A stretch of DNA of 64,000 nt, from the NCBI RefSeq assembly GCF_001677475.2, contig NZ_CP015229.1; one strand, given 5' to 3'. The position numbers were made by a program, and so were the translations under genes. Positions 4,730 to 64,000 of the stretch are shown here, piece by piece (position 1 is the stretch's first letter; each line of letters begins with the position of its first letter). The stretch is from Escherichia coli (GTDB lineage Bacteria > Pseudomonadota > Gammaproteobacteria > Enterobacterales > Enterobacteriaceae). Below the pieces are notes generated by a model. The model saw only the letters and a list, made by a program, of their open reading frames with translations. It did no database searches and was not told the origin of the DNA.

Positions 4730-6709
4730 TCAGTGAGATTTGACTGATTTTACCCCCAGCCAGTCAATAATCCCCTGTGCCGCATGACGCCCTTCTGCCA
4801 TTGCGGTAACCACCAGATCAGCACCACGCACGGCGTCGCCACCGGCGAAGATTTTCGGATTGGTGGTCTGGTAACGGTACTGGCTTTCCACATCCGCGAT
4901 GATGCGGCCCCATTTGTCTACCGTTACACCGTGCGACTCCAGCCACGGCATCCCGTGTGGATTGAAGCCAAACGCCATAATCACCGCATCGGCTGGCATG
5001 ACAAATTCACTGCCCTCAATCGGTACAGGTCGCCGACGCCCCTGGGCATCCGGCTCGCCAAGACGCGTGCGCAGGAAACGAATCCCGCAAACGTGACCTT
5101 GTTCATTCAGCTCAAGCGCCACCGGCTGGACGTTAAATTCGAAGTTGGCCCCCTCTTCGCGGGCGTTCTTCACCTCTTTCTTCGAGCCTGGCATGTTAGC
5201 TTCATCACGACGATAAGCGCAGGTGACGTTACTCGCGCCGTGGCGCAGCGCAGTACGCACACAGTCCATCGCGGTGTCGCCGCCGCCCAGTACCACGACG
5301 TTAAGTCCGGCGGTATTGATAAACGGCTCTTCCGGTAGCTCTTCGAGCCCCATCACCTGTTTAGTGTTGGCGATGAGGAACGGCAGCGCGTCATAAACGC
5401 CCGGCGCATCTTCATTGGGTAAACCCGCTTTCATGGAACGGTAAGTGCCTACGCCAACGAAGACCGCGTCGTATTGTTCCAAAAGCGAATCCAAAGAGAC
5501 ATCTTTACCCACTTCACAATTGAGTTCGAAGTGAATCCCCATCGCGCTGAAGATTTCCCGACGGCGTGCCAGCAGGGATTTATCCAGTTTGAAAGAAGGA
5601 ATGCCGAAAGTGAGCAAGCCACCGATTTCTGGATGGCGATCGTACACCGTCACCGCCACGCCATTGCGGGTCAGAACATCCGCACAGGCCAGCCCCGCCG
5701 GACCTGCACCGATAATCGCCACCCGCTTGTCCACTTTGGTGACATGGCTTAAGTCAGGACGCCAACCTTTCGCCAACGCCTGATCTGAAATGTAGCGTTC
5801 AATGTTGCCGATAGTTACTGCACCGTGCTCATCGCGAATAGTACAGGCACCTTCACACAAACGGTCTTGCGGACAAACGCGTCCGGTAATTTCCGGCAGG
5901 GTGTTGGTCTGGTGAGAAAGCTCGACGGCGGCGTCGATGTTTCCGGCTTTCACCAGTTCAATCCACTGCGGTATATGATTATGCAGCGGGCAGGTCCATT
6001 CACAAACGCTGTGCTCGCCGCATTTAAGGCAGCGCGAGGCTTCCCGTTGTGCCTGATCGGCACGGAATGGCAGATAAATTTCATCAAAACCGGTTTTGCG
6101 CGCTTCAATCGCCAGTTTATCCGGCTCGCCACGCGCGGGCGTTGCCTGCATTTGTTCGACTTTACTCATTACCGGCATTTCTTGTGCCGCGGTACTGGCA
6201 TGCCACGGTTGATGTTCCTGACGTGCGGTGCGCAAGCGGCGGGATTTCGCCATGCCGGAGAGTGCGGCGTCAGTGACCAGTTGCAGCGCGTCTGCCGGGC
6301 AATTCTCGACACAGGCAGGACCGTTTTCGCGCCCTGCACAAAGATCGCATTTATGCGCCGTGGCTTTTACTTTTCCTGCCGCGACGGGTGTTAGGACGAT
6401 TTGCATCGTACCAAACGGACAGGCCACCACGCAGGATTTACAGCCAATACACTTTTGCTGATTGACCTGAATGCTGTCATCAACGTGGCTGATTGCGCCA
6501 TTAGGGCAGCTACGGGCGCAGGGCGCATCTTCACAATGGTGACAGGTCACTGCACTACGTTGCTGCTGATGTTTGATAACCGTAATTCGGGGATGAAAAT
6601 GGTGTTGGCTCAGGACATGTTGCTCATCATTGTGAGCCATGACACAGGCGATTTCACAAGCATGACAACCCAGACATTGCTGACTGTTGGCCATAATAAA
6701 ACGATTCAT
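4730..6709 (-). CDS. aegA: Fe-S cluster plus FAD/NAD(P)-binding oxidoreductase AegA
   Basis: 659-aa ORF; N-terminal multiple CxxCxxCxxxCP ferredoxin motifs followed by a GltD-like pyridine-nucleotide-disulfide oxidoreductase domain (GAGPAG). Confidence 0.92.
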   Translation of the reverse strand: MNRFIMANSQQCLGCHACEIACVMAHNDEQHVLSQHHFHPRITVIKHQQQRSAVTCHHCEDAPCARSCPNGAISHVDDSIQVNQQKCIGCKSCVVACPFGTMQIVLTPVAAGKVKATAHKCDLCAGRENGPACVENCPADALQLVTDAALSGMAKSRRLRTARQEHQPWHASTAAQEMPVMSKVEQMQATPARGEPDKLAIEARKTGFDEIYLPFRADQAQREASRCLKCGEHSVCEWTCPLHNHIPQWIELVKAGNIDAAVELSHQTNTLPEITGRVCPQDRLCEGACTIRDEHGAVTIGNIERYISDQALAKGWRPDLSHVTKVDKRVAIIGAGPAGLACADVLTRNGVAVTVYDRHPEIGGLLTFGIPSFKLDKSLLARRREIFSAMGIHFELNCEVGKDVSLDSLLEQYDAVFVGVGTYRSMKAGLPNEDAPGVYDALPFLIANTKQVMGLEELPEEPFINTAGLNVVVLGGGDTAMDCVRTALRHGASNVTCAYRRDEANMPGSKKEVKNAREEGANFEFNVQPVALELNEQGHVCGIRFLRTRLGEPDAQGRRRPVPIEGSEFVMPADAVIMAFGFNPHGMPWLESHGVTVDKWGRIIADVESQYRYQTTNPKIFAGGDAVRGADLVVTAMAEGRHAAQGIIDWLGVKSVKSH

Positions 6710-14146: not shown

Positions 14147-14151
14147 GCTGA

Positions 14152-14216
14152 GCGGCCGGATAAGGCGTTAACGCCGCATCCGGCCATGATGCCTGATACG
14201 GTCTTATCAGGCCTAC
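14152..14216. repeat. REP element pair (BIME-like)
   Basis: gcggccggataaggcgttaacgccgcatccggcc plus a second palindromic unit between the ypfN and ypfH 3' ends. Confidence 0.75.
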
Positions 14217-18825: not shown

Positions 18826-18874
18826 GTGCCGGATGTTTTGTCAGATGCGGCAAGAACGCCTTATCCGACCTACG
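18826..18874. repeat. REP-like palindromic element
   Basis: gtgccggatg...gcggcaagaacgccttatccgacctacg in the bamC-purC intergenic region. Confidence 0.55.
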
Positions 18875-39169: not shown

Positions 39170-39264
39170 TGCCGGATGCGACGCTTGCCACGTCTTATCC
39201 GGCCTACGAATACTATGGATTAACTTCGCGTAGTTCGGATAAGGCGTTCGCGCCGCATCCGACA
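39170..39264. repeat. BIME (two inverted REP units)
   Basis: tgccggatgcgacgcttgccacgtcttatccggcctacg and cggataaggcgttcgcgccgcatccgaca between yfgD and hda. Confidence 0.8.
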
Positions 39265-47897: not shown

Positions 47898-50141
47898 TCA
47901 GGCACTTTCGCGAATGGGTTCGATTTCATTCAACGTATCAATTAACGGCTGCGGCTTACCAATAAGATAACCCTGCATATAATCGATCCCCAAAGAGAGC
48001 ACCGCCTCGCGGATCTCTTCGTTTTCAACGTACTCTGCCACTACCAGCATTTTCTTCATTCGCGCCAGGTGGCAAATCGATGCCACTATCTGATAATCCA
48101 GACTATTTGACACAATATTGCGGATAAAACTGCCGTCAATTTTAAGCAGATCGGCATTCACATTTTTAAGCCGCGCATAGCTGGCGTAGCCGGTGCCGAA
48201 ATCATCAATCGCAATCTGGCAGCCTAATTCCTGAAGATGCTGCAAGGTGATTTGCGCCTGCTTAACATTGGTCAGAGCATTACTTTCGGTGACTTCAAAA
48301 ATAAGTTGCCACGCTTCAATCTGATATTTAGCCAGCAACTGACTGACTTCAACAGGAAAACGAGCCTGACATACCGAGGTTGGAGACAGATTAATAGCAA
48401 AACGGTGAGCGGGCATCTTCGCTCTGTTTTCAGCCATAAATTGCAGCGTATGCTCAATGACCCACATGTCGATACTCGACGATAAACCAAATTCGTGCGC
48501 GACCGGCAAGAAGCTATCGGGGCTGATCAATTCATCATTCTCACCTTTCATGCGCAGAAGAATTTCATGGTAAACATCACCACGCATACCGGTAATCGGC
48601 TGGGCCATCAGGAAAAAATGGTTGTGTTCCAGCGCCTGCTGTAGTCGATTCATCATCGCGACTTTATCTTTCAATTCGCGTTGCAAATACATTGCCCCGC
48701 GACGCTGCATATTTTCCGGGGCGTTGGTCACGATGGAAAGTTCGGCGACCGTATTTAGCTCTCCCAGCAGCAGGTAGATATGATTCACTGGCGAGCGCAC
48801 ATAGCAGTAACTGACGCCAATCTGCGGTTGCATCGGCATGCCATCCCAAAAGAAACGAAATTGCTTGAGATGGCTATCCAGTGCGGTAATGCGCTCCTGG
48901 TGCGATTCTGTATTCAGTCGCAGCGCGAGATCGTTACCCGAAAGCTGATAAACATCTTCACCCGGTTCCAGCAAGGGTGACAGCCAGTGAGAAAGTTTTT
49001 GCTTGTATTGAATCCGCAGCATGATGCCATAGTTCTTAACCAGCATTTCCATGCCAGGGATGCGTAAATAACAAAGCGCAGACCAGGGGGCATCACGCAA
49101 CGCGCGATTCAGGGCGCGAACATTTGGCAGATGAACCACCGGGTCCACATACGCAAGCCGCTGAATGCGTCTGACTACCGTTCTCTGACGGGTTGCCAGT
49201 ACAGCCATATAATTGACAATAAAAGAGAATACCAGATAACTGGAGGAGGTTATGGTCAGCTGCGTGGTATAGCCAGGATAAATGGGAATGTAATTTTGAT
49301 AGCTGTGGATGCTGATCATCAACACGACCGCCCAGAGCAGCGAAATCAGCTTATAACCATAGCGCATCGCTCCCCACATCATCAGGGGCAGCAATAATGA
49401 CAAGGTATAGTTGGTGCTAAAAATTGTGCTTTTTTCATTTAACGGCATGCATAACAGCAACAGTAAAGCACCTAATGCCAGTAGCCAGAGTGCGAACTCT
49501 TTTTTGGTGACTTTGACATCAACCTGCTGTTTTAATTGCGAATAATAGCTACGTAAATAAAATGGATTTCGCACTACCCGAATGATGAAGTAGCACAGCG
49601 GGACACCGATCAGATTACCCACCAGTAAGGCCTGATAATTGATTAAAGTCCCGAGGTTAAAAGGCATGACACCGACCAGATTTTCTCTACTCGCCAGTAA
49701 TCCTACAAATGCGGCAAACTGGAAAAGTATCAGAAACAGCGTTGCAGGAAACACAATCTGCCAGAATATACGCTGGGAAATTAAACGGGTATCACCATGT
49801 GAAACGTTGTTACGCCGGGGAGTAAAGACCCTGTAACCGCCCCAACAGAGAATGATAATGATAATAAAATTAGCCGTTAACGAGAGCGTTTCGTAAAAAC
49901 CCAGCTCTGAATATTTGCGGACAAAAATCCCTAAGGCGATCCCTGGCAATGCCGCCCAGCTGAAAAACATCATCATGCTGATCATCAGTGCCAGAGGCAG
50001 ATAAAAGAGAAAAACCTCACCGGAAGAAATATGCGCGAAAGTATTGATGTGGCCGAAAATGGGCAAGATTAAAGAAGGCAGGAACAGCGGAAGCCCCCAC
50101 CATTTATCACGTATTTTTATATAGGTTGCATTCAGTTTCAT
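47898..50141 (-). CDS. pdeF: c-di-GMP phosphodiesterase PdeF (MASE1 - degenerate GGDEF - EAL)
   Basis: 747-aa ORF; hydrophobic N-terminal half and C-terminal EAL domain (QPITGMRGDVYHEILLRM...). Confidence 0.92.
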   Translation of the reverse strand: MKLNATYIKIRDKWWGLPLFLPSLILPIFGHINTFAHISSGEVFLFYLPLALMISMMMFFSWAALPGIALGIFVRKYSELGFYETLSLTANFIIIIILCWGGYRVFTPRRNNVSHGDTRLISQRIFWQIVFPATLFLILFQFAAFVGLLASRENLVGVMPFNLGTLINYQALLVGNLIGVPLCYFIIRVVRNPFYLRSYYSQLKQQVDVKVTKKEFALWLLALGALLLLLCMPLNEKSTIFSTNYTLSLLLPLMMWGAMRYGYKLISLLWAVVLMISIHSYQNYIPIYPGYTTQLTITSSSYLVFSFIVNYMAVLATRQRTVVRRIQRLAYVDPVVHLPNVRALNRALRDAPWSALCYLRIPGMEMLVKNYGIMLRIQYKQKLSHWLSPLLEPGEDVYQLSGNDLALRLNTESHQERITALDSHLKQFRFFWDGMPMQPQIGVSYCYVRSPVNHIYLLLGELNTVAELSIVTNAPENMQRRGAMYLQRELKDKVAMMNRLQQALEHNHFFLMAQPITGMRGDVYHEILLRMKGENDELISPDSFLPVAHEFGLSSSIDMWVIEHTLQFMAENRAKMPAHRFAINLSPTSVCQARFPVEVSQLLAKYQIEAWQLIFEVTESNALTNVKQAQITLQHLQELGCQIAIDDFGTGYASYARLKNVNADLLKIDGSFIRNIVSNSLDYQIVASICHLARMKKMLVVAEYVENEEIREAVLSLGIDYMQGYLIGKPQPLIDTLNEIEPIRESA

Positions 50142-50268
50142 AGATGCTCAGCAGAATCCCCCACATCCTGAAGGAGGTGTATTCAGACAGGCATCCCACC
50201 TGACTTCGAATGATGATTATTCATCACTATAGAGAGCATTAATTCTAAGTGTCATATGAAAGTTCCAA

Positions 50269-50282
50269 TTGATATATATCAA
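50269..50282. promoter_or_regulatory. FNR binding site upstream of pdeF
   Basis: ttgatatatatcaa is a perfect TTGAT-N4-ATCAA palindrome ~130 bp upstream of the pdeF start codon. Confidence 0.7.
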
Positions 50283-50492
50283 ACAAAATAACCCTGATTA
50301 ATGAATTATTACGTTTATCATGTTAATTCATCATTATTACATCATCATTGTAAATAATTAAATTAACTTCCATAACATTAAAATATGTATCCACTGACGC
50401 TTTTTTACATAACGAAGAATTGACCATTTTGTCCTGTTGTGCCTTAATGTAAGTACCGTCCACTGCGTGGGACATACTTCAAGGAACCTTTT

Positions 50493-50684
50493 GTGAGTCA
50501 GGCAACCAGTATGCGAAAACGACACCGATTTAACAGTCGCATGACCCGTATCGTACTGCTCATCAGCTTTATCTTCTTCTTTGGCCGTTTTATCTACTCG
50601 TCCGTCGGTGCATGGCAGCACCATCAGAGCAAAAAAGAAGCTCAGCAATCCACACTCTCCGTCGAATCACCGGTACAACGTTAG
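50493..50684 (+). CDS. yfgG: 63-aa small membrane protein YfgG
   Basis: ORF encoding MSQATSMRKRHRFNSRMTRIVLLISFIFFFGRFIYSS... with one TM helix; flanked by very AT-rich DNA. Confidence 0.8.
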   Translation: MSQATSMRKRHRFNSRMTRIVLLISFIFFFGRFIYSSVGAWQHHQSKKEAQQSTLSVESPVQR

Positions 50685-50994
50685 CGGTTACCTTCTCCAC
50701 TTTCACAGAACATAACGGCACCTCGCTGTCGGATGCTTTTGCTCTTTGGGATTATCAAAGCGGCAGATATTCTTTCATCTTAAATTTTACGTCTTTGTCC
50801 TGACTGATGTTTATCCTGTTTGGCTGCGAAATAAATATAAAATTAATACATATGTTTTAATGATGTATTTTTATAAATTATTTTCCACGTGAATTTTAAT
50901 AAATTTAATCTATTCCTTTATACGCAATACATTTACTTTCCTCTTTTGATGATCTTAAATGTCTTATTTTTCGTAATGTGTATAACAAGGAATA

Positions 50995-51513
50995 GTGATG
51001 AAATTTAAAAAATGTCTTCTGCCTGTGGCAATGTTAGCGTCATTCACTCTGGCAGGATGCCAGTCAAATGCTGATGATCATGCCGCCGATGTTTATCAAA
51101 CCGATCAACTGAATACCAAACAAGAAACTAAAACCGTTAATATTATTTCCATTCTTCCCGCAAAAGTTGCCGTAGACAACTCCCAAAATAAACGAAACGC
51201 ACAAGCCTTCGGCGCGCTTATTGGTGCAGTCGCTGGCGGTGTAATCGGCCACAACGTGGGGTCTGGCAGCAATTCCGGAACGACGGCAGGTGCAGTTGGC
51301 GGCGGAGCTGTAGGCGCGGCAGCAGGTTCTATGGTGAATGATAAAACCTTAGTGGAAGGTGTTTCTCTAACGTATAAGGAAGGCACCAAAGTGTATACCT
51401 CCACCCAGGTGGGTAAAGAGTGCCAGTTTACGACAGGTTTAGCCGTTGTTATTACCACGACGTATAACGAAACGCGTATTCAGCCAAATACGAAATGTCC
51501 TGAAAAGAGCTAA
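50995..51513 (+). CDS. yfgH: outer-membrane lipoprotein YfgH (glycine-zipper)
   Basis: 172-aa ORF; lipobox LAGC; Gly-rich zipper GAVAGGVIGHNVGSGSNSGTTAGAVGGGAVGAAAGS. Confidence 0.88.
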   Translation: MMKFKKCLLPVAMLASFTLAGCQSNADDHAADVYQTDQLNTKQETKTVNIISILPAKVAVDNSQNKRNAQAFGALIGAVAGGVIGHNVGSGSNSGTTAGAVGGGAVGAAAGSMVNDKTLVEGVSLTYKEGTKVYTSTQVGKECQFTTGLAVVITTTYNETRIQPNTKCPEKS

Positions 51514-51528
51514 TGATCAGGAGGAGTC

Positions 51529-52068
51529 ATGAAGAAAGTTTTTCTTTGCGCCATCTTAGCCTCCTTAAGCTATCCGGCTATCGCCTCATCATTGCAGGAT
51601 CAACTCTCGGCTGTCGCAGAAGCGGAACAGCAAGGTAAAAATGAAGAGCAAAGGCAGCATGACGAATGGGTCGCGGAGCGCAACAGGGAAATCCAGCAAG
51701 AGAAGCAACGTCGCGCAAACGCCCAGGCCGCGGCTAATAAAAGAGCGGCAACGGCAGCGGCGAATAAGAAAGCTCGTCAGGATAAACTGGACGCCGAAGC
51801 CTCTGCGGACAAAAAACGCGATCAAAGTTATGAAGATGAGCTACGCAGCTTAGAGATTCAGAAACAAAAACTGGCGCTGGCAAAAGAAGAAGCCCGCGTT
51901 AAGCGAGAAAACGAATTTATCGATCAGGAACTGAAGCACAAAGCTGCGCAAACCGATGTGGTGCAATCTGAAGCTGACGCAAACAGGAATATGACTGAGG
52001 GCGGTCGAGATCTGATGAAAAGCGTGGGCAAAGCAGAAGAGAACAAATCGGACAGCTGGTTTAACTAA
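51529..52068 (+). CDS. yfgI: signal-peptide protein YfgI, highly charged predicted coiled coil
   Basis: 179-aa ORF; signal peptide then K/E/R/Q/A-rich low-complexity sequence. Confidence 0.88.
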   Translation: MKKVFLCAILASLSYPAIASSLQDQLSAVAEAEQQGKNEEQRQHDEWVAERNREIQQEKQRRANAQAAANKRAATAAANKKARQDKLDAEASADKKRDQSYEDELRSLEIQKQKLALAKEEARVKRENEFIDQELKHKAAQTDVVQSEADANRNMTEGGRDLMKSVGKAEENKSDSWFN

Positions 52069-52105
52069 GCGATGTCAGTAATTTCAAGCCTATGATTCGT
52101 GAGTA

Positions 52106-52140
52106 TAAAAAACCCTCTGTAGTAACAGAGGGTTTTGTTC
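52106..52140. terminator. bidirectional intrinsic terminator (yfgI / guaA)
   Basis: aaaaaaccctctgtagtaacagagggttttgtt: A-tract, stem, T-tract between convergent genes. Confidence 0.8.
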
Positions 52141-52160
52141 ATTCATAGTGCAGGGTCAAA

Positions 52161-53738
52161 TCATTCCCACTCAATAGTCGCTGGTGGCTTGCCGCTGATG
52201 TCATACACCACGCGGGAAATACCGTTCACTTCATTGATAATGCGGTTGGAAACGCGACCGAGGAAGTCATACGGCAGGTGCGCCCAGTGTGCGGTCATAA
52301 AGTCGATGGTTTCGACAGCACGCAGAGAAACAACCCAGTCATACTTACGACCATCGCCCATTACACCAACGGAACGTACCGGCAGGAAGACGGTGAACGC
52401 CTGGCTGACTTTGTCGTACAGGTCCGCTTTACGCAGTTCTTCAATAAAGATGGCGTCAGCACGGCGCAGCAGGTCGCAGTACTCTTTCTTCACTTCGCCC
52501 AGTACACGAACGCCGAGGCCTGGTCCCGGGAACGGGTGACGGTACAGCATGTCGTACGGCAGGCCCAGCTCCAGACCAATCTTACGCACTTCGTCTTTGA
52601 ACAGCTCTTTCAGCGGTTCAACCAGCCCCATCTTCATCTCTTTCGGCAGGCCGCCCACGTTGTGGTGAGATTTGATGACGTGTGCTTTACCGGTTGCAGA
52701 CGCCGCAGATTCGATAACGTCAGGGTAGATAGTACCCTGCGCCAGCCACTTCACGTCTTCCAGTTTCAGCGCTTCTTCATCGAATACTTCAACGAAAACG
52801 CGCCCGATGATTTTACGTTTTGCTTCCGGATCGTTTTCGCCAGCCAGCGCTGACAGGAAGCGATCTTCTGCCGGAACGTGAACAATATTGAGACCAAAGT
52901 GATCGCCAAACATATCCAGAACCTGCTCTGCTTCGTTGAGGCGCAGCAGGCCATTGTCGACGAATACGCAAGTCAGGTTTTTACCGATAGCGCGGTGCAG
53001 CAGCATTGCGGTTACGGAGGAATCCACACCACCAGAGAGGCCGAGGATGACTTTATCGTCGCCTACCTGCTCGCGGATGCGAGCTACAGCATCGTCGATA
53101 ATTTTCGCTGGCGTCCACAGGGCTTCACACTGGCAGATATCACGCACAAAACGCTCCAGCATGCGCATACCCTGGCGGGTGTGAGTCACTTCCGGGTGGA
53201 ACTGTACGCCATAGAAGCGTTTTTCTTCGTTAGCCATAATGGCAAACGGGCAGCTTTCGGTGCTGGCTACGGTGACGAAGTCGGACGGGATAGCGGTAAC
53301 TTTATCGCCGTGGCTCATCCAGACATCGAGCAGCGGTTTACCGTCTGCGGTCAGCGCATCTTCGATACCGCGAACCAGGGCGCTGTCGTTTACGACTTCA
53401 ACCTGCGCGTAGCCAAATTCACGTTCGTTAGAGGCTTCAACGTGACCGCCCAACTGCATTGCCATGGTCTGCATACCATAGCAAACGCCGAATACCGGTA
53501 CGCCTGCTTCAAAAACATACTGCGGCGCACGCGGGCTGTTTTCTTCGGTGGTGCTTTCCGGGCCGCCGGAAAGAATAATGCCGCTTGGATTGAAGTCACG
53601 AATTTGTGCTTCTGTCACATCCCATGCCCACAGTTCGCAGTAAACGCCCAGCTCACGCACGCGGCGCGCAACCAGTTGAGTATACTGGGAACCGAAGTCC
53701 AGAATGAGGATGCGATGCTTATGAATGTTTTCCGTCAT
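52161..53738 (-). CDS. guaA: GMP synthase (glutamine-hydrolysing)
   Basis: 525-aa ORF; class-I glutamine amidotransferase domain and ATP pyrophosphatase SGGVDSS motif. Confidence 0.95.
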
Positions 53739-53806
53739 TGACGCTTATTCCGAGGCAAGTGAAACAGATAATATAAATCGCCCGACATGAAGTCGGGCGA
53801 AGAGAA

Positions 53807-55273
53807 TCAGGAGCCCAGACGGTAGTTCGGGGACTCTTTAGTAATGGTCACGTCGTGAACGTGGCTTTCCTGAATGCCCGCACCGCTGATACGTACAAAC
53901 TCCGCTTTAGTACGCAGTTCGTCGATAGTACCACAGCCGGTCAGACCCATACAGGAGCGCAGGCCGCCCATCTGCTGGTGAATGATCTCTTTCAGGCGAC
54001 CTTTATAAGCTACGCGACCTTCGATACCTTCCGGCACCAGTTTGTCGGCTGCGTTATCGCTCTGGAAATAACGGTCAGAGGAACCTTTGGACATCGCGCC
54101 CAGGGAACCCATACCACGGTACGATTTGTAAGAACGGCCCTGGTAGAGTTCAATTTCACCCGGAGATTCTTCAGTACCCGCCAGCATGGAACCCACCATT
54201 ACCGCGCTTGCGCCAGCGGCGATAGCTTTGGCGATGTCACCGGAGAAGCGAATACCACCATCTGCGATAACCGGAATACCTGTGCCTTCCAGCGCTTCAA
54301 CTGCGTCAGCAACGGCAGTGATCTGCGGAACACCTACGCCAGTAACGATACGAGTCGTACAGATAGAACCAGGGCCGATACCGACTTTAACCGCGCTGCA
54401 ACCAGCTTCTGCCAGAGCGCGTGCACCTGCAGCTGTTGCCACGTTGCCGCCGATGATTTGCAGATCCGGATATTTAGCACGGGTTTCACGGATACGTTGC
54501 AGTACACCTTCTGAGTGACCGTGGGAGGAGTCTATCAGCAGAACGTCAACGCCTGCGGCAACCAGCGCATCAACACGCTCTTCGTTACCCGCACCTGCGC
54601 CAACCGCTGCACCAACACGCAGACGGCCTTGCTCGTCTTTACAGGCGTTCGGTTTACGTTCCGCTTTCTGGAAGTCTTTCACGGTGATCATGCCGATCAG
54701 GTGGAATTCGTCATCAACCACCAGCGCTTTTTCAACGCGTTTTTCGTGCATTTTTGCGAGCACAACTTCACGGGCTTCACCTTCACGCACGGTTACCAGA
54801 CGTTCTTTCGGCGTCATGTAAACGCTAACCGGCTGGCTCAGGTCGGTAACAAAACGCACGTCACGACCGGTGATAATACCCACCAGTTCGTTTTCTTCGG
54901 TAACGACCGGATAGCCCGCAAAACCGTTACGCTCGGTCAGTTCTTTCACTTCGCGCAGCGTCGTGGTTGGCAGAACAGTCTGCGGATCAGTCACCACACC
55001 AGATTCGTGTTTTTTCACACGGCGAACTTCTTCTGCCTGGCGTTCAATGGACATGTTTTTGTGGATAAAGCCGATACCGCCTTCCTGAGCCAGAGCAATA
55101 GCCAGGCGCGCTTCCGTTACGGTATCCATTGCTGCGGAAAGCATAGGTATATTCAGACGAATAGTTTTCGTCAGCTGGGTGCTGAGGTCAGCAGTATTCG
55201 GCAGAACAGTAGAGTGAGCAGGAACGAGGAGAACGTCGTCAAACGTCAGAGCTTCTTTAGCGATACGTAGCAT
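53807..55273 (-). CDS. guaB: IMP dehydrogenase
   Basis: ORF 53807..55342 trimmed to 488 aa ([21 protein letters not shown]...); CBS pair and catalytic IGPGSICTT motif. Confidence 0.95.
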
Positions 55274-55404
55274 GGGCAATATCTCGACCAGAGTGGTTAA
55301 TAAATATTGCCGCGGCATTATACAGAGCGTAACCGATTGCATCTACCCCTTTTTGCAAAAAATGCTTGCTATCCCCGAAGGGCGGGTTACTATCGACTGA
55401 ATAA

Positions 55405-56811
<1,407 letters not shown>

Positions 56812-56878
56812 GCCGATATGATGCGCCAGCATCGCATCCGGCACTGGCTCCCAGGCCACGCCAGATGCGCCATGCTGG
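56812..56878. repeat. REP-like palindromic element at xseA 3' junction
   Basis: gccgatatgatgcgccagcatcgcatccggcac... fills the gap between the xseA stop and the stop of the convergent giant gene. Confidence 0.6.
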
Positions 56879-59800
56879 TTACTGGAAGCAGGTAACCAGA
56901 CCCGGTTTATTCATTAGCGTGATACTACAATCCTGTGCTCCAGTGCCTTCGTCCATCCCACACTGTTGAGAGGACAAATAAGGAAAACTTGGTGAAGACG
57001 GCCATCCCAGTGAATTAAAAACAGTATGCAACAACTCTAATTCATTGTATGTCGGTGCATTTTCTATGCTGCCACACTGCCTTGCGATATCCCATTTACT
57101 GGCATCAATGATATGTGCAGAAGCCCAGTTTTCGTAGTTAATAAACGGTGAGGATACGGGATTAGCCCCGGACGGCAATTCCGTCGTTAACAACGGTCGA
57201 TGTAGCGATTTACCATTCACCACTACCGTGTCTGCCATATGTCCCCAAAAGTGCGCCGAGGAAACATTCGGGCTGGTTGGCACCGTAAAAATAGCGTCCA
57301 GCGTGTCTGTCGCGGAAGCGTAATTAGCCAGAGTAACCGTCAGTGGCGTTTTATAACCAGGGGTATTATCCTGGCGGAGCGTAAAACTTGCCGTCCCATC
57401 AGCGCCTGTCATGCCACTAATGGTATTACCGCTTTCACTCAGCGTAATAGCCGAACCAGATAACGGCTGAACGATGAGATCGTCCATCGCCACCACATCA
57501 CCATACAACGTTGCCCCAGCGTTACGCGGCGATGCCTCACCACGTTTCAAAGTAAACTCCACATTCGGCACCGTATTCCCGGCGCTGTCTTTCACCGTCA
57601 CGGTAACGGGCATGGCTTCGCCTTTTTTCACTTTCGCCGCCTGGCTGTCAGCATCAAACGCTGTTGAGGTCAGTGTGACGCTGGAAACCGTCGCGCGCGC
57701 AGACACCAGGCACGCCTGATAAGCGGTATTAACATTCAATGTCGTCAAGCCATTTTTCATATCGAGCGACTGATTTTTGCCATCTGTAGTCTTATCCTGC
57801 GCCCACCAGCCATAATAAACTGACCAGCCAGTTTCCGTCGTAAAGGTGTTATTGGGATAACGTTGATACAGTGACTTCATATCGCTGAGCAACGGTTGTC
57901 GTGCTTCTTCACAGGGGCTGAGGCTGGCATTTGCTTTGGTTGTTGCTGAGAAATAGGGCCAGTCCTCATTATTGTTACTGATTTTATTCACCCCGGAGGT
58001 CGATGGCAGCTCTTTCCACAATTTCGGTCGTTCAAAGACGGTTCCATTTGCCGCTGTCACCGTTTCTGGCATATGGCCCCAGTAGTTGGCATCCGGAGTG
58101 TCAGGGCTGGTGACCACGGTAAATATCAGGTCCAGGTTTGACGTGATCTGCGGATCTTGTGCAAGCGAGACCGTAAACGGCGTTGCCAGGCCAGTGGTGT
58201 TGTTTTGCGTAACATTGAACGTCACAGTGCCATCACTGCCGGTAAAGCCAAGCCATTTTGCCGTATCCTGAGCAAAGGAAATGCTGGCTGCTGTCGGTGT
58301 GACGACATTTACAATAAGATCATCTGCCGAAGTAGATGAGGGCTTATTCCCTGTACGGTTTTTCGACTGCGCCCGCTGAAGCGTCACGCTCTCACCACTC
58401 ACCAGGTTGCCATTTTGGTCTTTTACTGTCACGACTAACGGGATTGTCTCGCCCTTTTTCGCCGATGCCGAAGGTGTGCCACCGTTGCTGGCGGTTTTCG
58501 TCTCATCAAATGCGGCTGACGTGAGAGTCACGCTTGATGATAAAGCGTGAGGCTGCGTCAGACAAAGCATCAGAGCAGACGGATAGAGAGAAGATGAAGG
58601 TTGTCCTGTTTTCAGGTTAATGACCTGATAATACCAGGACGTGCCACTAAGAGTAAGCTCATAAGTCCACCAGTTTCCGGCTGTTGTCGGCACCCCCAGA
58701 TCTGTCGTTATCGCCCCGTTAGGGTGATCGTTATAAAGCCCCTGCAACTCGCTGAGGCGCGGTTGATATTCCAGTGGGCAATCTGCCGTCGCTTTTTGAG
58801 TGTTGGATATATATGACCATGTCTCATTATTACCATTTACCGAGCTCCCCGAAGTTGCTTCCGCTGCCAGTAATGGGCGCTTGAAGGTCACGCCTGCCGA
58901 GCTGGTAAACGTTTCCGGCATATGGCCCCAGTATTTCGCTTTTGGCGAATCCGGGCTGGTTATCACCGTGAAAATGACATCCAGCGTGGCGCTTTTTGAG
59001 GTGTCGCGCATCAATGTTGCAGTGAGCGGGGTTGCGAACCCATAACTGCCGTTTTGGCTGACCTCAAACGTAGCTTTACCATCGCTTCCTGTCTTCAGAA
59101 GAGCCTGCGTCCCATCCTCATACAAGATTGACGTTACCCCGGTAGGCTCCAAAGGCACGATGGTAAGATCATCTGCAGAGGCATTGTACGCAGCTTTAGC
59201 GCGATTCAGCGCAGTCCCACGTTTAAGGTTAAAGCTGGCACCTGGCAGTGGATTGCCTGCGCTATCTCGCACCGTAACCGTCATCGGGATAACCTCTCCC
59301 TTCTTCGCCGTTGCACTGGGCCTGCCATCATTGCTCGCCGTTTTCGTTGCATCCTCTGCCGTTGAGGTCATCTCAATAGAAGCCGCCTCTGGATGAGGGT
59401 TTACCAGGCACAGCATTAATGCCGAGGTGGTTGAAGACGCTCTTCCACTTGATCCATTTAACAGAGAAATATATTGATCGTACCACTTACCCGCATATGC
59501 CACCACGTCGTAAGCCCACCAGTAGCTATTCACTGGAATACCCAGATCGGTCTTTATCGCACGACTTGGATGTTCGTCGTACAATGCCTGGAGTTCGCTT
59601 AACAGCGGTTGATAATGTACATCGCACCCGCTTTTATCTGCATCCCCCTTTGTTGCCGATTTCAACAATCCCCATGTTTCATTGTCTTCTATGACTCCAG
59701 ATTCTGACGATGTTTCGCTCTTGAGTAGTGGACGCCTGAAGGCAATCCCGGAACGCGTAGTGAACGTTTCCGCCATATGCCCCCAGTAACTTGCCAGGGG

Positions 59801-62800
59801 AGTATCCGGGCTGGTTATCACAGTAAACATCACCGGTAATTTGTTGGATTCCAGGCTCGACTGATAGGCCTGAGCGTACACATTGGTTACCAGGCCTATA
59901 GAATCATCCTGCTTTACCGTAAACGTGGCCGTTCCATCCGCGCCCGTCACCGCATAAAGCAAGATTGATGAACTATCCATTCTTGCCGACGTCCCCGCGG
60001 CGTTGATTACGGTGATAGTTCTGTTCAACATCAGTGTATTCTGGCGATTTGTCGATCCTTCACGTTTGAGAATAAACGGAACATTTGGTACGACATTTCC
60101 CTGCGCATCTTTGGTCACCACGCGAATCACCGCGTCGTCACCTTTTTTCCGTTTTAGTGCGCTGAGGGTTTCGTCAACTTTGACAAATTGTGTCGAATCG
60201 TTCGCTTCGACAATAATTTGGCTGGTCATCGCCACTGGGGTAGCCCGACAGCTTAGCAGACCTATACTGCTTGGCATGATCTCCGATTCATAACCAGTCT
60301 TCAACGAAACCGCTTTAAAATTAAAGGCTTGAGTATAATAGGCGACTGCCGTACTGGAGATATAGGCACGTGATACAGGCCATCCCGTAACGTCATGTAT
60401 TGGCGTGTAACCTTCATCGGCATACAATGACTCAAGTTCATTGTCAGCCGGGACATATCCTGCACCGCAACCATTTACAGATGTGTTGTTCGACTGGTCC
60501 GGCGAGAACAGTGACCATTCCTCTCCATCTTCCTGAAAATAGTTTCGACTAGCTGTAACGGTAAGCTCATCTTGCAATAACGGTCTTTTATAAATAAGCC
60601 CGCCAGCACCGGTCATCGTTTCGGCCATATGCCCCCAGAATTTTGCTTTAGGGGTATCGGGGCTGGTTATCACCGTAAAGACCACCGGAAGCATTGATTT
60701 TACGTTATTATCTGTATCCAGCATGGCGGTCAGTTCGGTTTTTAAACCTGTGGTATTGTCCTGTTTCAGTGCAAGTGTTGTCGTACCATCTGCGCCGGTA
60801 ACGCCATAAATCAGTGCTGTTGTTGAGGAAAAATTACTCTGCGTATTACCCCAGGCATCCGTCACGATGAGCGCGCCTGCTGTCACCGTTGTAGACGCAT
60901 TTGCCCGATTGACGCTAAGGTTACGTTTAAGCGTAAACGCGGTATTTCCCACCGGGTTACCCTGCGCATCTTTAGTGGTCACGCGAACCACGACTTCTTC
61001 CCCTTTTTTCGCTTTGACAACATTATTCGTACTGTCAAATTTTGTAGGGTCCGCAGCCTCAAGAACGATTTGGCTTGCCTTAACGATCGGCGTCGTCTGG
61101 CAGGTAAGCAGTTCTTTTGTGGCCGATGGAATTATCGAACTGGTACCTGAACTGAGATTGACGGCCTTGAAGTCACGCTGTTCCAGACTACTGCTGCCTG
61201 TCGTGCTGGTAAGGTAACTTGAGGCGACGGGCCAGCCCTGAACCGTTTTCATCGCATTGCCGCGGTTAGCTTCATACAATGACTCCAGCCCAACCTGAGA
61301 GGGAACATATTCACTACCGCAACCATTAGAGGATGTGCTTGTCGCCTGAGTTTGGGTAAATTGCGCCCAGTCCTCATTCTCTTCTGCAATCGCTGTTCGA
61401 CCCGACGTACTGGATAACTCTTTCAACAATAATGGGCGCTTAAAGACCGTTCCATCCGCAGCCGTCACCGTTTCCGGCATATGTCCCCACATTTTCGCTT
61501 TATTGCTGTCCGGGCTGGTGACAACGGTAAAAATGGTATCGAGGGTCGCTTTTTTCGTTGTGTCTGAATAGAGCGCGGCGGTCAGCGACGTTTTCGTGCC
61601 ATGGGTATCCGGGCGGGTAATAGTGAGAATTTTAGTGCCATCGCTGCCGGCCATCGCGCTGTATGCTGCGGCGGTATCATTGAGCGAAGTTTCATCCGCC
61701 AGGCCACTATTGATCACAACCGGCGCAACCAGCGCATCACCGCTACCGGCAATGTGTTTTTCGTTTGATCGGGTATAACCATCGCCACGCTTCAGGGTAA
61801 AAGGCATATCACCCAATGGATTGCCCTGAGCATCTTTTACCGTCACCTTCACCTGTAGCGTTTCGCCTTTTTTCAGCTTCGCCGCATTTGCTGCCGCGTT
61901 CCACTGCGCCGGGTCCACCACTTCCAGCGTAATGCTGTTGGCAGGATTGTTAGCCGTCGTCAGGCAACTGACATAAACCGCCGTGCTACCGCCAACGGTC
62001 CGCGCGCCATCGTTGAGGGCTATGGTGTAGTAATGCGGCACCTGATCCGCGGGCGAACTGCTCCAGTAGGGCTGACGCTGCGTTGGCCAACCGTGTACCG
62101 TTTGAACGGCGTTACCGCTGTAAGCATCATAGAGCGCGTTAAGCTGGGAACGGCGTGGGAGCATATTGGCACCACAGCCACCTTTACTGGTGCTGGAAGT
62201 GTTGGCCTGGCTAACGCGCGACCACACTTCGTTATTTTCCGTTAATGTGCCGTCCGGGCTGGACACTTCCGCAGCCAGCCGGGATCGGGCAAAGGTTAAT
62301 GCATCGACGGTAATCGTCTCATCCATATGCCCCCACATCTGCGCGCCAACCGCATCCGGACTGGTGAGCGTAGTGAAAATCACATTGTAATTAACAGTAT
62401 TGGGAATATAGGAGTTTACAGGCGCAATATTCAGCGGCGTCGCTAAGCCCACACCTTGCGGTTGCTTAATTTCCACAGTAGCAAAACCCTGCGCATCCGT
62501 AGTACCTGCATAGACTAAAGACGGTTGCGATGTTCCGTAGAGCGTGCCATTCATCTCGATTGCGCCGCGGGTTGGATCATCGAAACCCGTGGTCTGCCCC
62601 TGACGATTTTTCCCCATATCTTTCGTGATGGTGAACGCGGTATACGGCACGGGCGCATTATTCAAGGCATTAAAGGTGCGTACCGTCATGGTAATCGTTT
62701 CACCCACTTTCGCCTGCGCTCTGCTGCTTGTGGAAACATCATGATCGGTGGTCGCAGCAATCTGGGCGACCATCTCATTGCCCGAACAAGAAAGGTAGTT

Positions 62801-64000
62801 TTGCTTAAAGCCGGAATAGGTGTCGATGTTGCCCGTGGCCAGGTTCACCGACGCATGCGACGTCTCTTCCACCGCACTAAGATACGCTTTTTGCAACGTT
62901 GGCCAGCCATATTCGGTGCCGATGACATTGGCTGGATGTGCGGCAAACAAACTGTGCAATGAGCTTTGGCTCGGAATATGACCTAAACCACACTCAGCCT
63001 GCATACTGCTATTCTGATCAAACAGCGCCCAGTCTTCGTTATTTTCCCGCACTGCTCCCAGTTCGTTGTCGGTTTCATCCGCCAACCGTGGGCGTTTAAA
63101 GATATTGTTCGCTTCAATAATGCCTAACATATGTCCCCACATCCGCGCTTTGTCGGAATCAGGGCTGGTGATCACCGTAAAAATAACGTCTTTCTCATCC
63201 GAAGCGGTAAAATCACTGCGCATTTTCGCGGTGATGTGAGTTTTCACCCCCACTCCGCCTGGCTGGGTCAGCGTCAGAGAGGCCTCTCCGTTAGCATCAG
63301 TGATCCCTTCATAGATATGGGCGTCAACTTTGCGAACGTTACTGCCGCCATCAATTTGTACCGGGTGCGTCTCCCACGCGGCGTCAGTTTGATTCTTACG
63401 GTTAACGCCGTCATCCAGATGCAGCGAAAAGTAGTAGTAAGCCAGCGGCTGATCGTTGTTCTTGCTATCGGTAATCGTCAGGCGTAAAGAAGCCTCTTCC
63501 CCCACCTTTACTTTCATCGCTTTTATCGTCGAATCATAACTGCCCGGCGTCAGTACCAGCTTCGGTTCAACATCGGGCGCTTCTTTATCGACACAGCTCA
63601 CAATAAACGTCGTATCGTCCGGTTTTTGCGCTTCGCTGCGGTTCGAAACATCCGCCGCATGGTGCTGGCCGCTCATCCCCGCCAGTGATGACCAGTAGTA
63701 GTTCCCCTGCATCGGCCAACCAGCCACATCCTGCACTGACGTTGGCACCACCGTCGCCAGCGCACCGAACTGACGCATTCCGGGCAAAATGTCGCAATGT
63801 TTATCCGCGCCGCTCCAGGTAAAGGTGGACCAGGTTTCATTGTGATCGTTAACCGTACCGTCTTCATTATCGACTTCCGCCGCCAGTTTTGGTCGACTAA
63901 AAGTGTAATCACGGGCCTTCAGCGTATCGGGCATATGACCCCACATTGTAGCCTGCGGGACATCCGGGCTGGTGAGGACGGTAAAGATCACTGCCGTTTC
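56879..64000 (-). CDS. giant tandem-repeat surface protein, RatA/RatB-like (bacterial Ig-like Big_1 domains alternating with a conserved Cys-containing module); C-terminal >2370 aa only, 5' end beyond window
   Basis: Single minus-strand ORF with no stop from the window edge to TAA at 56879; nine ~805-855 bp repeats each encoding FTV(I/V)TSPD..WGHM..NE.W..C..LY..GWP then KKGE..VTV.D..GN..F.LKR..G.DGT..F; codon usage like host; not present at this site in K-12. Confidence 0.85.
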   Translation of the reverse strand, partial: ETAVIFTVLTSPDVPQATMWGHMPDTLKARDYTFSRPKLAAEVDNEDGTVNDHNETWSTFTWSGADKHCDILPGMRQFGALATVVPTSVQDVAGWPMQGNYYWSSLAGMSGQHHAADVSNRSEAQKPDDTTFIVSCVDKEAPDVEPKLVLTPGSYDSTIKAMKVKVGEEASLRLTITDSKNNDQPLAYYYFSLHLDDGVNRKNQTDAAWETHPVQIDGGSNVRKVDAHIYEGITDANGEASLTLTQPGGVGVKTHITAKMRSDFTASDEKDVIFTVITSPDSDKARMWGHMLGIIEANNIFKRPRLADETDNELGAVRENNEDWALFDQNSSMQAECGLGHIPSQSSLHSLFAAHPANVIGTEYGWPTLQKAYLSAVEETSHASVNLATGNIDTYSGFKQNYLSCSGNEMVAQIAATTDHDVSTSSRAQAKVGETITMTVRTFNALNNAPVPYTAFTITKDMGKNRQGQTTGFDDPTRGAIEMNGTLYGTSQPSLVYAGTTDAQGFATVEIKQPQGVGLATPLNIAPVNSYIPNTVNYNVIFTTLTSPDAVGAQMWGHMDETITVDALTFARSRLAAEVSSPDGTLTENNEVWSRVSQANTSSTSKGGCGANMLPRRSQLNALYDAYSGNAVQTVHGWPTQRQPYWSSSPADQVPHYYTIALNDGARTVGGSTAVYVSCLTTANNPANSITLEVVDPAQWNAAANAAKLKKGETLQVKVTVKDAQGNPLGDMPFTLKRGDGYTRSNEKHIAGSGDALVAPVVINSGLADETSLNDTAAAYSAMAGSDGTKILTITRPDTHGTKTSLTAALYSDTTKKATLDTIFTVVTSPDSNKAKMWGHMPETVTAADGTVFKRPLLLKELSSTSGRTAIAEENEDWAQFTQTQATSTSSNGCGSEYVPSQVGLESLYEANRGNAMKTVQGWPVASSYLTSTTGSSSLEQRDFKAVNLSSGTSSIIPSATKELLTCQTTPIVKASQIVLEAADPTKFDSTNNVVKAKKGEEVVVRVTTKDAQGNPVGNTAFTLKRNLSVNRANASTTVTAGALIVTDAWGNTQSNFSSTTALIYGVTGADGTTTLALKQDNTTGLKTELTAMLDTDNNVKSMLPVVFTVITSPDTPKAKFWGHMAETMTGAGGLIYKRPLLQDELTVTASRNYFQEDGEEWSLFSPDQSNNTSVNGCGAGYVPADNELESLYADEGYTPIHDVTGWPVSRAYISSTAVAYYTQAFNFKAVSLKTGYESEIMPSSIGLLSCRATPVAMTSQIIVEANDSTQFVKVDETLSALKRKKGDDAVIRVVTKDAQGNVVPNVPFILKREGSTNRQNTLMLNRTITVINAAGTSARMDSSSILLYAVTGADGTATFTVKQDDSIGLVTNVYAQAYQSSLESNKLPVMFTVITSPDTPLASYWGHMAETFTTRSGIAFRRPLLKSETSSESGVIEDNETWGLLKSATKGDADKSGCDVHYQPLLSELQALYDEHPSRAIKTDLGIPVNSYWWAYDVVAYAGKWYDQYISLLNGSSGRASSTTSALMLCLVNPHPEAASIEMTSTAEDATKTASNDGRPSATAKKGEVIPMTVTVRDSAGNPLPGASFNLKRGTALNRAKAAYNASADDLTIVPLEPTGVTSILYEDGTQALLKTGSDGKATFEVSQNGSYGFATPLTATLMRDTSKSATLDVIFTVITSPDSPKAKYWGHMPETFTSSAGVTFKRPLLAAEATSGSSVNGNNETWSYISNTQKATADCPLEYQPRLSELQGLYNDHPNGAITTDLGVPTTAGNWWTYELTLSGTSWYYQVINLKTGQPSSSLYPSALMLCLTQPHALSSSVTLTSAAFDETKTASNGGTPSASAKKGETIPLVVTVKDQNGNLVSGESVTLQRAQSKNRTGNKPSSTSADDLIVNVVTPTAASISFAQDTAKWLGFTGSDGTVTFNVTQNNTTGLATPFTVSLAQDPQITSNLDLIFTVVTSPDTPDANYWGHMPETVTAANGTVFERPKLWKELPSTSGVNKISNNNEDWPYFSATTKANASLSPCEEARQPLLSDMKSLYQRYPNNTFTTETGWSVYYGWWAQDKTTDGKNQSLDMKNGLTTLNVNTAYQACLVSARATVSSVTLTSTAFDADSQAAKVKKGEAMPVTVTVKDSAGNTVPNVEFTLKRGEASPRNAGATLYGDVVAMDDLIVQPLSGSAITLSESGNTISGMTGADGTASFTLRQDNTPGYKTPLTVTLANYASATDTLDAIFTVPTSPNVSSAHFWGHMADTVVVNGKSLHRPLLTTELPSGANPVSSPFINYENWASAHIIDASKWDIARQCGSIENAPTYNELELLHTVFNSLGWPSSPSFPYLSSQQCGMDEGTGAQDCSITLMNKPGLVTCFQ

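Follow-up and report, generated by a model that had tools for sequence, protein, structure and literature searches.

A probable BIME remnant between the convergent stop codons of xseA and a RatA-like adhesin gene at the sinH-sinI-ratA island of Escherichia coli

Introduction

REP elements of E. coli are imperfect palindromes of 29-37 nt that carry a GTAG tag and an internal AA-GC bulge, and they are divided into the classes y, z1 and z2 (PMC8266576). PMC12306157 summarises REPs as stabilising the mRNA upstream of them, and cites work in which REPs no more than 15 nt from a stop codon are reported to stall ribosomes, with down-regulation of the gene upstream (ref. 17 in PMC12306157).

The genomic region between xseA and yfgJ (GR17) has been described as the ila cluster, sinH-sinI-ratA, of ExPEC, which is considered a relative of the Salmonella island CS54 (PMC12928451; PMC3591323). 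In Salmonella, the homologous CS54 island also adjoins xseA (PMC3591323; PMC12928451).

Here, we describe the short spacer that separates xseA from the RatA-like gene of this island in a stretch of 64,000 nt of E. coli DNA, hereafter the window. We compare the spacer with known REP and BIME copies, with its counterparts in other genomes and with the K-12 junction, and consider which roles it could have at the 3′ ends of the two genes.

Results

Gene arrangement around the spacer

xseA and the RatA-like gene are convergent, and the gap between their 3′ ends occupies 56812-56878 from stop to stop (Table 1). It measures 67 nt, one fewer than the 68 bp given by an initial annotation of the window. 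The convergent stops on which that annotation was built are present as described, a TAG at 56809-56811 on the + strand for xseA and a TAA at 56881-56879 on the - strand for the giant gene.

The xseA product matches the Pfam family Exonuc_VII_L (2.8e-114). For the giant gene, the C-terminal 1200 aa were tested; this portion scores 2102.7 bits against the NCBIfam RatA-like model NF011844, below the model's full-length cut-off of 3870, and contains Pfam InvE_AD and BIg21 repeats. The RatA-like protein of relatives has about 2680 aa. Two mechanical ORFs (75 and 74 aa) were also noted on the - strand at 56632-56873, antisense to the 3′ end of xseA and reaching into the gap.

The guaA-guaB-yfgGHI segment (50000-55400) shares 95-99% identity with 5425 of 5426 complete E. 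coli genomes. The closest complete genome, BEC1-S17-ESBL-09 (BEC1), carries guaB, xseA, the adhesin gene (8043 nt), sinI, sinH, yfgJ and der in this order. The sinH-sinI-ratA (ila / CS54-like) island has the RatA-like gene as its first gene.

Table 1. Coordinates of the genes, repeat parts and predicted structures at the xseA/RatA-like spacer of the window.
Feature	Position	Strand	Description
xseA (exonuclease VII large subunit)	55435-56811	+	458 aa; ORF, RefSeq annotation of homologous loci
A7 run	56791-56797	+	Encodes the conserved Lys-Lys of the XseA C-terminus; U7 on the - strand
REP1	56808-56843	+	36 nt: GTAG GCCG-AT AT GATGC GCCA GCATC GC ATCCGGC A
GTAG tag of REP1	56808-56811	+	Its TAG is the xseA stop codon
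Direct repeats GATGCGCCA	56820-28, 56864-72	+	Two copies of 9 nt, 44 nt apart
Long imperfect hairpin (predicted)	56825-56879	both	22 pairs between the 3′ arm of REP1 and half-REP2; dominant structure
Putative BIME linker CTGGCTCCCAGGCCA	56844-56858		15 nt; apical small stem of the long hairpin
Putative half-REP2 CGCCAGATGCGCCATGCTGG	56859-56878	+	20 nt; 5′ half of an inverted REP (iREP orientation)
Additional hairpin CTGGTTAC / GTAACCAG	56875-56899		8-9 bp; spans the RatA-like stop codon and the codons just before it
RatA-like giant adhesin gene	56879-63991 and beyond, off the window end (64000)	-	ORF

Sequence of the spacer

We conclude from its sequence that the gap is very probably a partly decayed BIME, made up of a REP whose GTAG tag contains the xseA stop codon, a linker, and an inverted half-REP that is truncated at the RatA-like stop. 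The earlier description of the gap as "REP-like" was thus correct and understated, the element being a bona fide REP to which a linker and one half of an inverted REP are joined.

The first repeat, REP1, shares 35 of 37 positions with the canonical, GTAG-tagged REP found between yhaL and cyuA (GTAGGCCGGATAAGATGCGCCAGCATCGCATCCGGCA), from which it differs by a 1-nt deletion in the lower stem and by a bulge changed from AA to AT. The position of the bulge is kept, with AT standing opposite GC, while the lower stem has lost one G; the AA itself is retained in the alleles of PSUO2 and O145. Within the window, the reverse complement of a canonical REP at 2844-2880 (TGCCGGATGCGACGCTGACGCGTCTTATCCGGCCTAC) agrees with REP1 at 32 of 37 positions, and the differences located in the upper stem are mutually complementary. 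GTAG lies directly 5′ of the palindrome, whose 36 nt fold on their own, on the + strand, into a stem-loop of -16.3 kcal/mol (z -2.5). The stem takes the register GATGC-GCCA-GCATC, with 5 bp and a 4-nt loop; below it come the internal bulge and then GCCG(G)AT/ATCCGGC as the lower stem. The core GATGCGCCAGCATCGCATC is located at 56820-56838, and the stem is to be read in this canonical register, not as GATGCG/CGCATC. We take REP1 to belong to class z2, judging from the consensus.

The remainder of the spacer points to the same family. Half-REP2 matches the reverse complement of REP1 at 16 of 20 positions; the CTAC tail is missing, and the repeat runs directly up to the RatA-like stop codon. The segment 56808-56882, which comprises REP1, the linker, the half-REP and the first 4 nt of ratA, matches the nfeR-aer BIME at 59 of 77 positions, linker included. 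When 77 nt that span the gap were used as a blastn query, 96,375 places were matched, distributed over 5425 of the 5426 E. coli genomes (median 18 per genome), and the matched places are unannotated spacers. The element therefore has many dispersed near-identical copies per genome, mostly extragenic. Other canonical REP/BIME copies lie in the window at about 2844-2900, 14151-14216, 18840-18873 and 39170-39264, and served as internal references.

Two further candidate readings of the sequence were set aside. A continuation of REP2 into the RatA-like coding sequence, where TTA-CTGG resembles TTATCCGG, was rejected, as this is CFQ-stop coding sequence that is conserved in the EC958 allele, which is without REP2. 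Membership of an sRNA family was ruled out as well: the sole match in an Rfam search was naRNA4 (RF02564, a REP-derived nucleoid-associated RNA), at 23.4 bits and E = 0.36, far under its gathering score of 59.5, and nothing in the entire window reached a gathering threshold in Rfam.

In species-representative genomes, a strict scan for the REP1-linker motif gave one match, in Escherichia sp. E1V33, and none outside Escherichia. This non-coli genome has an xseA-REP-adhesin junction of the O145-type allele (its locus 1560-1760), which extends the arrangement beyond E. coli proper.

Predicted folding

For the segment 56824-56880, the predicted folding energy is -33.5 kcal/mol (+ strand) and -36.9 kcal/mol (- strand), with z of -5.2 and -5.1; no shuffle out of 200 reached these values. 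One long imperfect hairpin dominates the prediction, and its base reaches 56879, inside the RatA-like stop codon. Across six alleles, 91.7% of the cells of this hairpin are paired and two pairs show compensatory changes (C-G to U-A; A-U / G-C), while 9 of its 22 pairs are unpaired in at least one allele. The helix of REP1 itself showed no compensatory change in the allele comparison, and in PSUO2 and O145 the upper stem of this helix is disrupted.

That the predicted structure is dominated by this long hairpin, and not by the canonical REP fold, is a feature that could be indicative of a chance palindrome or of a locus-specific regulatory hairpin outside the REP family, as could the missing CTAC tail of the second repeat. 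Such an origin has next to no probability, being refuted by the 35/37 agreement with canonical REPs, by the approximately 18 related places in each genome and by a linker homologous to that of another BIME. A decayed BIME that folds into a long hairpin is the reading we retain.

The additional hairpin over the end of the RatA-like gene (Table 1) is perfect in the window only. A56894 is replaced by C in BEC1, KY1497 and PSUO2, which disrupts the stem, and O145 differs further; we dropped this hairpin as a conserved element and consider it probably incidental.

Allelic variation at the site

The site is structurally unstable across strains, with indels between short repeats and differing REP content in the island alleles. 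A more canonical head, GTAGACCGGATAAG, is found in PSUO2 and strain 8178, and the PSUO2 and O145 alleles share the head GTAG(A/G)CCGGA(T/A)AAG at the same site. KY1497 (its locus 485-591) has lost 9 nt of the REP head (GTAGGCCGG), which leaves a gap of 59 nt. Strain 550 (its locus 485-547) has an additional deletion of 44 nt, exactly between the two GATGCGCCA repeats, and a gap of 15 nt; in this strain, the annotation gives the RatA-like gene as a pseudogene, interrupted by an internal stop.

EC958, which represents the ST131-type island allele (its locus 6204-6256), carries a different, unrelated spacer of 53 nt, in which a CCTGATA...TATCAGG palindrome supplies a TGA stop for xseA. On its sequence, this palindrome looks like a degenerate REP without the GTAG tag. 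In addition to two canonical REPs, the 119-nt spacer of LP5-1 (its locus 1713-1831) contains a GGCCGCCGTAGGCGGCC hairpin, and 13 plasmid records match a 32-nt piece of this spacer.

The TAG that ends xseA is that of the REP GTAG tag in the window and in the BEC1, PSUO2/8178, O145 and LP5-1 alleles, and in KY1497 and strain 550 it is the in-frame TAA of the REP's GGATAAG that ends the gene. The natural occurrence of alleles of 59, 53 and 15 nt argues that strains can do without this exact element, which may be neutral.

Comparison with the K-12 junction

In K-12, the genes xseA and yfgJ share a 4-nt overlap (TTAA), with no spacer and no REP between them. Among the 5426 genomes, this K-12-type junction, without island and without REP, is present in 3668; the window-type REP junction is found in 960, the EC958 type in 742 and the LP5-1 type in 10.

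The initial annotation had taken the palindrome as the marker of the left junction of a segment foreign to K-12, and had suggested aligning it with the K-12 xseA-yfgJ junction in order to define the breakpoint. In a physical sense the claim stands, and the alignment bears it out in that the sequence is absent from K-12. No defined breakpoint emerged, however. The last motif shared with K-12, CGTAAAAA at 56788-56795, ends about 12 nt upstream of the REP, and the last 340 nt or so of xseA are strongly diverged from the K-12 gene: sliding identity is about 97% early in xseA, ~80% from about 56470, 68% at 56620-56710 and ~55% beyond. The XseA C-terminus accordingly reads …RKKTANS* in the window and …RKKVH* in K-12. 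Because identity to K-12 falls gradually from about 56470, some 340 nt upstream, the REP in the gap is not a sharp breakpoint. In these alignments, it is the physical left (xseA-proximal) end of the sinH-sinI-ratA island and does not qualify as a defined breakpoint or boundary element.

A more active part at the junction has to be weighed here, in which the REP would have been a recombination or integration site, either as the target of the sinH-sinI-ratA insertion or as the substrate of a deletion that gave rise to the K-12 state. Its distance of only ~12 nt from the last motif common to K-12 is compatible with such a part, as are the deletions mediated by short repeats inside the element (44 nt in strain 550) and the roles in genome plasticity with which REP/BIME elements are credited (PMC8266576). 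We nevertheless regard it as highly improbable. The right island junction, from the sinH promoter to the yfgJ stop, is AT-rich and no REP was found in it, which leaves the gap REP without a partner for a deletion between repeats; nor were direct repeats seen flanking the island. The yfgJ flank of the island-positive BEC1 has ~80% identity to K-12, and with the 3′ end of xseA the flanks lie at about 55-80% identity over hundreds of nt, which indicates old diverged haplotypes and not a recent site-specific event. In addition, the homologous CS54 island stands beside xseA in Salmonella too (PMC3591323; PMC12928451), and other island alleles of E. coli have different REPs at the same site.

Transcription termination

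A second role proposed in the initial annotation was that of a shared bidirectional terminator. Several properties of the gap invite the idea of an intrinsic (Rho-independent) terminator serving both the xseA and the ratA-like transcripts, namely a very stable GC-rich hairpin on each strand, a placement between convergent genes and the upstream A7 run of the + strand, which is U7 on the - strand. A scan of 55300-58300 for consensus terminators returned 0 sites, where shuffled sequence would be expected to give 3.8. None of the stems in the gap region is followed by a T-run on the + strand; on the - strand, the U7 comes 10 nt after the REP tag and 14 nt after the palindrome, and only a weak 4-bp hairpin (-3.7 kcal/mol) precedes it. 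A GC-rich hairpin with an immediate U-tract was therefore not found on either strand, and because neither strand has a U-tract adjoining a stem, an intrinsic bidirectional terminator is unsupported and we judge it very unlikely.

This weak hairpin, a CGGC...GCCG pairing followed by the U7 on the - strand, was considered as a terminator by itself and is unconvincing, as its fold amounts to only -3.7 kcal/mol. A GC-skew inspection for rut-like C-rich tracts gave a mild, uninformative signal. Termination of the two transcripts probably is Rho-dependent or takes place further on, and not at the gap element.

Possible roles of the hairpin

From what is known of REP biology, the repeat could have reached the 3′-3′ spacer by spreading as an element, selfish or domesticated, of the TnpA-REP system. 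REP1 may be inactive as a substrate of TnpA-REP (RAYT), because the bulge and GTAG are reported to be essential for TnpA-REP activity.

When transcribed from either side, the stem-loop of about -35 kcal/mol would most likely act as a passive barrier to 3′-to-5′ exonucleases, and such a barrier would stabilise the transcripts of xseA and of the ratA operon at their 3′ ends. A function as mRNA stabiliser, which the initial annotation had offered as an alternative to a terminator, is thus plausible; by our analysis, a measurable stabilising effect of this kind has roughly an even chance of existing.

The distance to the stop codons suggests another possible effect. The REP structure begins 0 nt from the xseA stop, and on the opposite strand the hairpin ends at 56879 in the RatA-like stop. 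With a stop codon at each of its ends, and hence inside the 15-nt limit reported for REPs, the structure may slow ribosomes as they terminate and reduce the amount of XseA or RatA produced, although we see this as possible and rather doubtful. A combination of the two effects, in which one BIME hairpin would work as a two-way post-transcriptional valve that stalls ribosomes and protects 3′ ends for both xseA and the ratA-sinI-sinH operon, is an improbable extension. If it did operate, lineages would have their adhesin or ExoVII output adjusted by the indel alleles of 67, 59, 53 and 15 nt.

Discussion

The element is an ordinary REP/BIME copy. Its kind has been described already, as have the roles it is likely to have and the island in which it lies. 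Its particulars are tidy and unsurprising: a stop codon taken from a GTAG tag, a hairpin extending from stop to stop, and indel alleles that arise between short repeats. They show that, on its xseA side, a known ExPEC adhesin island is padded by unstable REP/BIME debris that supplies the stop of xseA. This can be of use for typing island haplotypes and for engineering or transcript mapping at the locus; beyond annotation it matters little, and it opens no new question on REP biology.

The locus corresponds to the described xseA..yfgJ region, or ila cluster, in its neighbours and gene order, and its giant gene matches the NCBIfam RatA-like model. Relative to the cluster as described, the present finding concerns the 67-nt spacer at the xseA end, which varies among island alleles.

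With the E. coli REP, of the z2 class as we assign it, REP1 has in common the GTAG tag, the lower stem, the position of the internal bulge, the GATGC/GCATC upper stem with its GCCA loop, the location in the 3′ spacer of a gene and the existence of many near-identical copies. It is 36 nt long where the class has 37, and it differs in the deleted base of the lower stem, in the AT bulge and in its overlap with the xseA stop codon. The order of a REP, a linker and the start of an oppositely oriented REP is that of a BIME. In the gap, by contrast, the second REP is a 20-nt 5′ half without the CTAC end, there is no tandem reiteration, and the dominant predicted fold joins the 3′ arm of REP1 and half-REP2 into a single long hairpin. 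Finally, the gap agrees with the REPs described as stalling ribosomes near stop codons in work cited by PMC12306157 (ref. 17 therein), lying 0 nt from the xseA stop and placing its hairpin at the RatA-like stop; compared with them, the two convergent stops borne on one structure form a particular arrangement of this locus and not a described class.
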